DNA of 64,000 nucleotides from Escherichia coli (GTDB lineage: Bacteria; Pseudomonadota; Gammaproteobacteria; Enterobacterales; Enterobacteriaceae). Shown here in pieces: positions 8,129-64,000 of this stretch (position 1 is its first letter; each line of letters starts with the position of its first letter). The position numbers were made by a program, and so were the translations under genes. Under the pieces are notes generated by a model. It had not been told where the DNA came from and searched no databases. It saw nothing but the letters and a program-made list of their open reading frames with translations. The DNA is taken from the NCBI RefSeq assembly GCF_965641715.1, contig NZ_OZ282453.1; one strand, written 5' to 3'.

Positions 8129-8452
8129 ATGAAGTGGGTAGTAATTGACACGGTCATTCAACCTACATGCGGCATATCTTTTTCAGCCATATGGGGTGAT
8201 ATAAAAATGATCATCTGGTATCAATCTACTATATTTCTTCCTCCTGGAAGTATATTTACACCGGTTAAGCCAGGTATTATCCTTAAGGATAAAGAATATC
8301 CTATTACTATTTATAACATTGCACCATTCAACAAGAATTTATGGAGTTTACTTAAAAGCAGTCAAGAGTGTCCTCCAGGAGAAAGCGAAATAACAAATAA
8401 ATGTTTGCATAAGAGTTGTATTATAAAAATATGCCCGTATGGGCTCAAGTAA
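8129..8452 (+). CDS. iraM: Anti-adaptor protein IraM (RssB inhibitor)
   Basis: 107-aa [26 protein letters not shown]...; very AT-rich flanks. Confidence 0.75.
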
Positions 8453-60858: not shown

Positions 60859-60935
60859 TGGTCCGCCACCGAGGACTCGAACCTCGCACCATCAACTTAG
60901 AAGGTTGATGCTCTATCCCGATGAGCTAGTGGCGG
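60859..60935 (-). tRNA. tRNA-Arg (anticodon UCU)
   Basis: Folded by hand: acceptor CCGCCAC/GTGGCGG, anticodon loop CT-TCT-AA, T-loop TTCGAGT, 3' ACCA. Confidence 0.85.
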
Positions 60936-60936
60936 T

Positions 60937-61012
60937 TGGTGGCCCTTGCTGGATTTGAACCAGCGACCTGGCGATTATGAGTCGCTCGCTCTCACCACTG
61001 AGCTAAAGGGCC
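60937..61012 (-). tRNA. tRNA-Ile2 / Met-like (anticodon CAU), ileX/ileZ-like
   Basis: Reverse complement GGCCCTTTAGCTCAGTGG...GACTCATAATCGC...GGTTCAAATCC...GGGCCACCA; near-identical in layout to E. coli ileX. Confidence 0.85.
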
Positions 61013-61221: not shown

Positions 61222-61917
61222 TCAATCTACTTTTGCAACACTTTGCTTTGAAAATGCCGCCTTTTGTTTTGAACGCGTTCTCATTACAAACAATAAAGCC
61301 CCACTATCCAGTCGGTAAAAAATGTGTTTCATTGCAACCCAGTGACGAGTAAATGTTTTGGACCAGTTTTTAGTTGTCACTCCCGCCAGTAATGCCAGCT
61401 CCTGGTATTCATAACCTTCCCCACCAAAAAGTTCTGCTTTTACTGCCTGCGCCGCCAGCCAGATTAATTTTTTCAGGCGTTCCTGCGTTTTCCCTGCAAT
61501 TTTTCTGGTACCGGATTGAGTATTAAATTCATTCCACGCCCACTGTGTTATCGCGATCTGATATTCCCAACAAATACTCCCGCTGTAACACCACAACAAC
61601 CAGGCTTTATGATGTTCTTCAAGAGACAGAACAGCCCGCCGCCACGATGATGTCGAAAACTCAACCGGACTGACCAGAGGAATTGACGTCCCCTTCGCCA
61701 GCGATTGCTTTCCCGGAATTGGTGGATTATCCCGCGTTATCATTTTTCCAGTCACTTCATCGCGGTACCGGATTTTTTTTCGCCTGTAACGCCCTGTATC
61801 GAACATGGCATTCTCTTGCCAGGCTTCAAGCTGACCTTTTGTTGCCCCACTCAAATCAGCGGTGGCGATAATGAGCTGCTCACGCACAAACTGTAAATAC
61901 TGGTTATTCATGCGCAC
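61222..61917 (-). CDS. Late-gene antiterminator Q-like protein (putative)
   Basis: 231-aa ORF directly upstream of the tRNAs and lysis cassette and downstream of rusA. Confidence 0.5.
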   Translation of the reverse strand: MRMNNQYLQFVREQLIIATADLSGATKGQLEAWQENAMFDTGRYRRKKIRYRDEVTGKMITRDNPPIPGKQSLAKGTSIPLVSPVEFSTSSWRRAVLSLEEHHKAWLLWCYSGSICWEYQIAITQWAWNEFNTQSGTRKIAGKTQERLKKLIWLAAQAVKAELFGGEGYEYQELALLAGVTTKNWSKTFTRHWVAMKHIFYRLDSGALLFVMRTRSKQKAAFSKQSVAKVD

Positions 61918-63330: not shown

Positions 63331-63738
63331 TTACCTCCAGATCCGTTGCTGGAATGTGCGGGACGGACGCGGTGGGCGTTCGGAGTAAGGAAGCCTGACG
63401 GAGATTATCCAGTGACGATAATCGAGGCTGAGGGCTTTCTTAATCTCGTATCCGTGTCTGCGGTAGCACTGAATTAGCCATTCAGCTTGTTCTTCAGTAC
63501 ATGGGGGATGCTGGTACCAATCAGATTTAAATGCGTGAGAGCGCCGCCCGTGCCTGCTGGCAAAGACGGCTGAATTATCAGAATTGTGTAATTTGGTATC
63601 GTGCGCCATCGGTTGTCTCTGCTGGCGCAGCAGGTGCCAGTTGTTCAGGCTGGCGTGCGAATTGTAAACCAGAATGCCAGGAAAAAACAAAACCCGCCGA
63701 AGCGGGTTAAGTGCGGGTGCGTTGAGGATGCCTGACAC
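63331..63738 (-). CDS. Hypothetical nin-region phage protein
   Basis: 135-aa ORF; start uncertain. Confidence 0.35.
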   Translation of the reverse strand: MSGILNAPALNPLRRVLFFPGILVYNSHASLNNWHLLRQQRQPMAHDTKLHNSDNSAVFASRHGRRSHAFKSDWYQHPPCTEEQAEWLIQCYRRHGYEIKKALSLDYRHWIISVRLPYSERPPRPSRTFQQRIWR

Positions 63739-63776
63739 ATCAGAGGTGGCGAGGGATTTCTCCCCCGCCAGGTCTC

Positions 63777-63932
63777 TTACTCCTCAGGTTCGTAAGCTGT
63801 GAAGACAGCGACCCCCGTCTGGCCGGTTCGGATTCGTACCTCGCAGAGGTCTTTCCTCGTTACCAGTGCCGTCACAATGACGGTTAAACAGATGACGATC
63901 AGGGCGATTAACATCGCCTTTTGCTGCTTCAT
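63777..63932 (-). CDS. hok: Hok/Gef-family type I toxin
   Basis: MKQQKAMLIALIVICLTVIVTALVTRKDLCEVRIRTGQTGVAVFTAYEPEE matches Hok-family sequence; the longer 63777-63989 ORF corresponds to the overlapping mok frame. Confidence 0.8.
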   Translation of the reverse strand: MKQQKAMLIALIVICLTVIVTALVTRKDLCEVRIRTGQTGVAVFTAYEPEE

Positions 63933-64000
63933 AGCCTGCTTCTCCTTGCCTTTCGGCACGTAAGAGGCTAACCTAGATTTGCCGTTCATAGATTGAGCCT

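Follow-up and report, generated by a model that had tools for sequence, protein, structure and literature searches.

The window, i.e., the whole 64,000-nucleotide stretch of Escherichia coli DNA that was analysed, very probably ends within a hokD/hokW-type hok/mok/sok locus, a canonical type I toxin-antitoxin system borne by a lambdoid prophage, of which it contains about the distal three quarters. hok/sok is the textbook example of such systems. The parts that fall within the window are listed in Table 1; outside it lie the promoter of hok, 101 nt at the start of the leader and most of the antisense RNA Sok. These parts are present in every close relative examined, and intactness of the locus beyond the window would follow from these relatives only.

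Table 1. Features of the hok/mok/sok locus and its prophage surroundings, in window coordinates.
Feature	Coordinates	Strand	Remarks
Two prophage tRNA genes	60859..61012	-	Just downstream of the Q-like ORF
ORF at the antiterminator Q position of relatives	61222..61917	-	Placed by position
hok 3' UTR	about 63684..63776	-	About 93 nt
Intrinsic terminator hairpin of the hok mRNA	63691..63708	-	Terminator scan; T run to about 63681
fbi (fold-back inhibition) element CCUCAACGCACCC	63715..63727	-	Complementary to the mRNA 5' end GGGUGCUUGAGG
3' UTR stem-loop GGCGGGGGAGAAAUCCCUCGCC	63748..63769	-	Just after the stop codon; predicted in full-length and truncated folds
hok CDS (HokD/HokW type)	63777..63932	-	51 aa plus stop, complete; ORF list, Pfam HOK_GEF
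hok stop codon	63777..63779	-	
mok ORF	63777..63989	-	70 aa, ATG start, 19 extra N-terminal codons, in the hok frame
UACG motif at Tyr47	63791..63794	-	TadA A-to-I editing context, Tyr to Cys; the edited A would be 63793
Hok codon 40, GGG (Gly)	63813..63815	-	GAG (Glu) in nearly all relatives
hok mRNA leader, 3' part	63927..64000	-	Rfam RF01794 positions 85-157, 32.9 bits, flagged 5'-truncated
hok AUG	63932	-	
hok Shine-Dalgarno AAGGAG	63942..63947	-	9 nt before the hok AUG
Sok promoter	63946..63974	+	-35 TTGCCT 63946..63951, 17-nt spacer, -10 TAACCT 63969..63974
Hypervariable 21-nt patch	63976..63996	both	mRNA nt 106-126
Predicted Sok RNA, first ~20 nt, single-stranded 5' tail	63981..64000	+	Alignment to K-12 sokC
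mok AUG	63989	-	
mok Shine-Dalgarno (G)AGG	63998..64000	-	Cut by the window end; minus strand from 64000 reads AGGCTCAATCTATG

As regards the toxin, residues 25-66 of the 70-aa ORF match the whole 42-position model of Pfam PF01848 (HOK_GEF) with E = 9.8e-22 and 76.7 bits, the curated cut-off of the model being 22 bits. This full-length match bears out the Hok-family type I toxin of the preliminary description, and the Hok observation is real and far beyond chance. The 51-aa peptide starting at the internal ATG 63932 (MKQQKAMLIALIVICLTVIVTALVTRKDLCEVRIRTGQTGVAVFTAYEPEE) is 98% identical to HokD of K-12, 90% identical to HokW of the Stx2 phage Sp5/VT2-Sakai and 41% identical to Hok of plasmid R1; both K-12 HokD and HokW are toxic on induction (for HokW, see PMC8621323). 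The same DNA in E. coli ETEC1749 and other strains is hokD in the RefSeq annotation, and the exact protein can be found on 156 public contigs, where it is named HokD (118 contigs for the exact 70-aa form). The gene is present as a single copy within the 64-kb window. Its reading frame contains neither a frameshift nor an internal stop and the coding sequence is complete, so the disruption that had been named as grounds for abandoning the toxin is absent, as could be seen without extending the sequence. In the initial description the strand, which is minus, was missing, and the coordinates left out the ~93 nt of 3' UTR, which are part of the locus.

The overlap with an upstream mok frame, also claimed beforehand, was confirmed by an in-frame ATG that opens the 70-aa ORF. 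Since mok lies in the hok frame, ribosomes starting at mok would make an N-terminally extended Hok of 70 aa. This geometry (213 nt with hok nested at the 3' end) is that of the annotated mok/MokW of VT2-Sakai and Rac-SA53, and the nested mokC of K-12 (210 nt) is the equivalent of the 70-aa ORF. The hok Shine-Dalgarno sequence is invariant in 70 unique relatives, and that of mok, which is truncated in the window, reads GAGGC in relatives.

Upstream of hok, the leader is recognized by Rfam RF01794, a model of 157 nt which, in spite of its name 'sok', spans the sense strand of hok between +1 and the hok AUG, and which therefore describes the hok leader and not the antisense RNA itself. The score obtained in the window is below the cut-off of the model (59 bits) because only its positions 85-157 fit before the window edge; the full model reaches 112.5 bits in the relative HCP5S3_I2 (L001), whose DNA matches the window over the shared region. 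ETEC1749, to which the window is 100% identical over its final 421 nt, has the full leader and a promoter with the -10 hexamer TAGAAT, and the full hok leader follows in HCP5S3_I2 and EC416 as well. The mRNA 5' end would lie at the equivalent of 64101 with a TAGAAA-17-TAGAAT promoter just upstream, and the leader of the window locus would accordingly be expected, by comparison with them, to continue to GGGTGCTTGAGG about 90-101 nt past the window end.

The antisense partner had been predicted to lie at or beyond the window end, and a search for a Sok-like promoter near the mok start had been proposed. A candidate promoter of this kind was indeed located on the plus strand, with hexamers identical to those of sokW, and the combination TTGCCT-17 nt-TAACCT occurs only once in the window. 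Window positions 63944..63973 (30 nt) match exactly the probe YO-597 of Takada et al. (PMC8621323). In the promoter-less sokW generated with primer YO-421, where TAGGTTA of the sense strand is swapped, protection against HokW is lost (PMC8621323), and TAGGTTA is the complement of the Sok -10 hexamer in the window. A generic sigma-70 consensus scan of the window did not call this promoter because its hexamers match the consensus at only 7 of 12 positions; with 8 of 12 by our own count, the Sok promoter of R1 would be missed by the same scan too. The promoter call was made by homology with sokW and sokC.

The ends of Sok were placed by alignment to the annotated sokC of K-12, whose first nt is the 9th of mokC and whose 3' end is GGGGCUUUUCUCUAU. 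With a start at ~63981 and an end at ~64057, the promoter and ~20 nt of Sok fall inside the window (63946..64000, plus strand) and the remaining ~57 nt outside, in keeping with the position first suggested for the antisense RNA. By homology, the Sok end beyond the window would be GGGGCTTTTCTCTAT at about 64043..64057. For the 77-nt Sok homologue of ETEC1749, the predicted fold (-33 kcal/mol, z = -5.8) shows a long hairpin flanked by a short 5' tail and a U-rich end.

For the folding of the sense RNA, a 418-nt mRNA was reconstructed from ETEC1749, in which mRNA position N corresponds to window coordinate 64102 - N, the sense strand being minus. In its predicted minimum-energy fold, nt 1-12 pair with nt 375-387, i.e., with fbi, and no other segment of the mRNA is predicted to form a better duplex with the 5' end than fbi does (-21.5 kcal/mol). 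Such an interaction between the mRNA ends is the classical tac/fbi pairing. The R1-type mRNA has the same end pairing at the same distance but with other sequences, GGCGCUU/AAGCGCC vs. GGGUGC/GCACCC plus UUGAGG/CCUCAA here; this change on both strands is consistent with compensatory change, as read from the sequences and not from a formal count of pairs. As a further comparator for the end pairing, hokB of K-12 yielded no 5' end motif in a pattern search. When the 3' end is removed in silico, the 5' end is predicted to fold locally and the mok Shine-Dalgarno sequence and AUG to be contained in a hairpin of nt 101-138, the counterpart of the one to which Sok binds in the R1 model (PMC1635323).

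Within the 3' UTR, the stem-loop that follows the stop codon is likely, by analogy with R1 (PMC1635323), to act as a road-block for 3' trimming, and the terminator is identical in ETEC1749. The region 63687..63768 (minus strand) also gives a sub-threshold match to the Rfam isrK family, with 27 bits for a cut-off of 50. A sensitive search of phage records returned no Salmonella or Gifsy counterpart among the 25 matches listed, two further Salmonella records being counted, so the resemblance to the Salmonella sRNA IsrK is probably one of hairpin and terminator only, and this identity was set aside.

Taken together with the mechanisms known for R1 and hokW-sokW, these elements lead to the following model. 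A stable hok mRNA would start about 101 nt beyond the window end and would be locked by the pairing of its 5' end with fbi. Slow trimming from the 3' end would then remove the terminator and fbi, upon which the leader would refold and expose the hairpin with the mok Shine-Dalgarno sequence and AUG. As long as the unstable Sok RNA is made from its promoter, it would bind this hairpin by its 5' tail, blocking the translation of mok and hence of hok and marking the duplex for RNase III. Once Sok synthesis stops, be it that transcription is shut off, that the element is lost or that the prophage is induced, translation of mok and hok would set in, and the 51-aa Hok would enter the inner membrane and depolarize it. 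Processing, Sok binding, RNase III cleavage and hok-mok coupling are here inferred from R1 and hokW-sokW: the R1 mechanism includes the initiation of target recognition by the Sok 5' tail (PMC1635323), and in the case of hokW, sokW neutralizes HokW, and a partial dependence of hokW-sokW on RNase III and Hfq was shown (PMC8621323).

While the overall assignment is well supported, two other readings of the locus itself have to be weighed. According to one of them, which was suggested by the preliminary mention of an adjacent relBE-type module, the gene would be the tail of a relBE operon as in the K-12 Qin prophage (relB-relE-hokD, or relBEF), without mok, Sok or leader and with relE just beyond the window edge. 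The 98% identity to K-12 HokD, the Qin-like downstream context (a rem-like ORF, DUF968/YdfU and Q) and the presence of the relE-hokD junction in 1173 of 5426 complete E. coli genomes speak in its favor. In K-12, 71 nt separate hokD from the end of relE upstream. Downstream of the hok ATG, window and K-12 differ by only 4 mismatches in 244 nt, whereas upstream of it they are identical for 14 nt only (AGGAGAAGCAGGCT); over the next 54 nt there are 11 identities, i.e., chance level. The breakpoint, at 63946/63947, lies inside the Sok -35 hexamer, and the 54 nt match exactly the canonical hok leader as found in hokW and ETEC1749, in agreement with the RF01794 match. An arrangement of the relBE-hokD kind, with relE ~70 nt upstream and neither mok nor Sok nor leader, is thus not what the window contains, relBE is found beside hokD in none of the three close relatives, and the intact leader is the majority form both in genomes and in IMG/VR loci. 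As judged from the sequence inside the window, the relBE reading is refuted, a mok start and leader at 63933..64000 being incompatible with an adjacent relE, and the likelihood left to it is negligible. Since the homology breaks off before mok, Sok and the leader, it is rather the K-12 hokD that is a rearranged relic devoid of these elements, a view with which the literature agrees (PMC12214031).

According to the other reading, the locus would be a decayed, non-functional copy, either by disruption beyond the window, where the hok promoter is situated, or by a Glu40Gly substitution disarming the toxin. Chromosomal hok loci are often inactivated, with insertion sequences or rearrangements in hokA, hokC, hokD and hokE of K-12 (PMC12214031). 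Regarding the substitution, seven positions are conserved in >80% of Hok peptides, namely M1, C16, T18, L30, C31, E32 and E41 of R1 Hok (bioRxiv 10.1101/2025.08.07.668861); six of them are retained in the window (M1, C15, T17, L29, C30 and E31 in HokD numbering), and the seventh, residue 40, equivalent to R1 E41, is the Gly. This Gly40 was found in 0 of 197 hokD/W-type coding sequences from IMG/VR. However, all visible elements are intact and identical to those of the functional hokW-sokW or of close relatives, the ETEC1749 copy with its 421 identical nt has the whole leader and promoter, and the exact Gly40 protein is carried by 156 contigs; the allele is shared by ETEC1749, UMNK88 and rl0044, all porcine E. 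coli. Moreover, R1 Hok E41A is still toxic on overexpression (bioRxiv 10.1101/2025.08.07.668861), so Glu40Gly excludes neither membership of the Hok family nor activity. By this analogy Hok-Gly40 is probably still toxic, and decay of the locus is considered very unlikely. The toxin also retains the UACG motif at Tyr47; this motif and the editing of hokC, hokD and hokE mRNAs have been described (bioRxiv 10.1101/2025.08.07.668861; PMC12214031), with 6% editing for K-12 hokD.

With regard to the biological role of the intact hok/mok/sok locus, its initial designation as a known prophage addiction or abortive-infection module is overstated. Plasmid stabilization, post-segregational killing and a lowered plating of phage T4 were shown for hok/sok of plasmid R1 (PMC1635323), the exclusion of T4 going back to Pecota and Wood (1996) as cited in PMC8621323 and PMC10305079, while the chromosomal hok loci that were tested gave no post-segregational killing (bioRxiv 10.1101/2025.08.07.668861). 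The only prophage relative tested, hokW-sokW, advances lysis and raises phage release after induction: under mitomycin C, sokW falls and HokW rises in a RecA-dependent manner, and deletion of the locus halves phage release (PMC8621323). Because hokW-sokW, with its near-identical regulatory region, acts in this way and the chromosomal loci tested show no post-segregational killing, help with lysis on induction would be the best-supported role of the window locus. Since hokW lies in another place, near one end of the VT2-Sakai record, the transfer of its role to the window locus remains an extrapolation. Addiction or abortive infection as the main role of the intact locus, in place of help with lysis, could draw on the effects of R1 hok/sok on plasmid stability and T4 plating and on the about four-fold enrichment of hok in prophages, but hok is not enriched near defence systems (bioRxiv 10.1101/2025.08.07.668861) and the sole prophage locus tested acts in favor of the phage. 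We regard addiction or abortive infection as main role as rather doubtful, bearing in mind that the sequence does not tell these roles apart and that they are not mutually exclusive; the locus may also stabilize the prophage or exclude other phages.

A further feature of the locus is a hypervariable patch which covers the spacer between the mok Shine-Dalgarno sequence and AUG together with mok codons 2-5 and, on the other strand, the predicted Sok 5' tail and the few nt between the Sok -10 hexamer and the start. Among 70 unique CDS-anchored IMG/VR sequences, its mean entropy is 0.82 bit, vs. 0.18 for nt 1-105, 0.13 for nt 127-169, 0.09 for the hok coding sequence and 0.13 for third codon positions. 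This variability was seen in two IMG/VR samples, one anchored on the leader and one on the coding sequence to avoid ascertainment bias. About 8 discrete alleles, 2-9 of 16 positions apart, can be distinguished across about 200 prophage loci, and the window has the commonest one, MNGK. It can be hypothesized that the patch is a specificity cassette whose alleles define mutually non-cross-reacting Sok/hok pairs, in which case each prophage copy, of which there are up to ten per genome, would respond only when its own Sok is lost or shut off. A comparable principle operates in Sib/Ibs and in the antisense incompatibility determinants of plasmids. On the same view, the rare Gly40 toxin could in addition be an attenuated variant. 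This proposal is nevertheless held to be improbable, and selection for orthogonality of Sok tails found no support: in locus pairs from the same genome, the allele is shared in 5 and different in 11, against a random sharing of 0.13, i.e., at least as often as at random and without any sign of avoidance, in a sample which is small and may include duplicated prophages. A plain alternative is that the patch would be the sole stretch of the leader that is not locked by alternative structures. The patch offers a small lead on cross-talk between multiple prophage-borne hok copies.

Regarding its frequency, the canonical leader can be found in 4262 of 5426 complete E. coli genomes (about 79%; at least 80% of the query covered), and the locus is therefore an already known, very common E. 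coli prophage hok/sok element. Among CDS-anchored IMG/VR loci, 86 of 89 have the canonical leader and 3 of 89 the K-12-type junction, and copies of the hokD/hokW type are often several per genome. In the 10 E. coli records sampled, no RefSeq feature lies under the hok leader and Sok region, so this class of loci is probably under-annotated. For the window, the gain in annotation consists in the strand and boundaries being fixed and the regulatory parts being sorted into those inside and those outside. The window contains the canonical Sok-regulated form and not the relBE-fused relic of K-12, and an extrapolation from K-12 would consequently mis-predict the neighbouring genes.

Within the lambdoid prophage, the locus has the replication/nin region on one side and the DUF968-RusA-Q genes on the other. 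Downstream of hok, the minus strand carries a rem-like ORF, a DUF968/HNH protein (YdfU-like), RusA, the ORF at the Q position and two tRNA genes, the latter being assigned to Arg(tct) and to a tRNA with a CAT anticodon (Met according to ARAGORN, Ile in the annotation of relatives). Over its final 24.5 kb, the window matches lambdoid prophages of E. coli from pigs and cattle, with EC416 as the best match (98.3% over 96%), and induced temperate phages match this prophage end at 96%. Upstream of the hok promoter, three close relatives carry unrelated cargo, with relBE in none of them, which suggests a variable insertion spot next to hok. This cargo differs per relative, consisting of a Ser/Thr kinase and a PP2C phosphatase, of various small hypothetical genes, or of just one ORF of 270 aa, and is located at 8343..9837 in L001, 5587..6847 in L002 and 3555..4364 in L003.

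Different hok systems can be compared with the window locus. With hokD (relF) of the K-12 Qin prophage it shares the toxin (98%), a near-identical 3' UTR, fbi and terminator, and the downstream rem-like ORF, DUF968/YdfU and Q, but the K-12 locus has relE 71 nt upstream in place of mok, Sok promoter and canonical leader. The chromosomal hokC/mokC/sokC (gef) locus of K-12 likewise has an in-frame mok (69 aa), and its sokC annotation fixes the Sok ends; unlike the window locus, it is not borne by a prophage and its 3' end has been lost to IS186, and the mok-frame proteins are 68% identical. In hok/mok/sok (parB) of R1, the order of the parts is the same, RF01794 matches, mok overlaps hok, fbi as the predicted partner of the 5' end lies about 375-390 nt further downstream and the Sok promoter follows GTAAGAGGC at the homologous position (TTGCGC-17-TATCCT vs. 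TTGCCT-17-TAACCT in the window). In contrast, the identity of the Hok proteins is only 41%, R1 hok/sok is borne by a plasmid and not by a prophage, mok is in another frame than hok according to the Mok codon labels (PMC9841398) whereas it is in frame in the window, and the leader hairpin that forms the Sok body is 18 nt longer than in K-12 hokC. For hokW-mokW-sokW of Sp5, VT2-Sakai and 933W (Takada et al., 2021; PMC8621323), the differences comprise 6 of 16 positions in the Sok 5' tail and mok codons 2-5 (MNGK in the window, MLNT in hokW), the C-terminus (TAYEPEE vs. VDYESEK), Gly40 in place of Glu, the lack of an obvious hairpin terminator after fbi in hokW, and the location of hokW near one end of the VT2-Sakai record and not between the replication genes and Q. 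Nonetheless, both are loci of lambdoid prophages with a 70-aa in-frame mok and 90% identical Hok proteins, their leader, hok Shine-Dalgarno sequence, Sok -35 and -10 hexamers and fbi are near-identical, and the probe YO-597 designed for sokW matches the window exactly.
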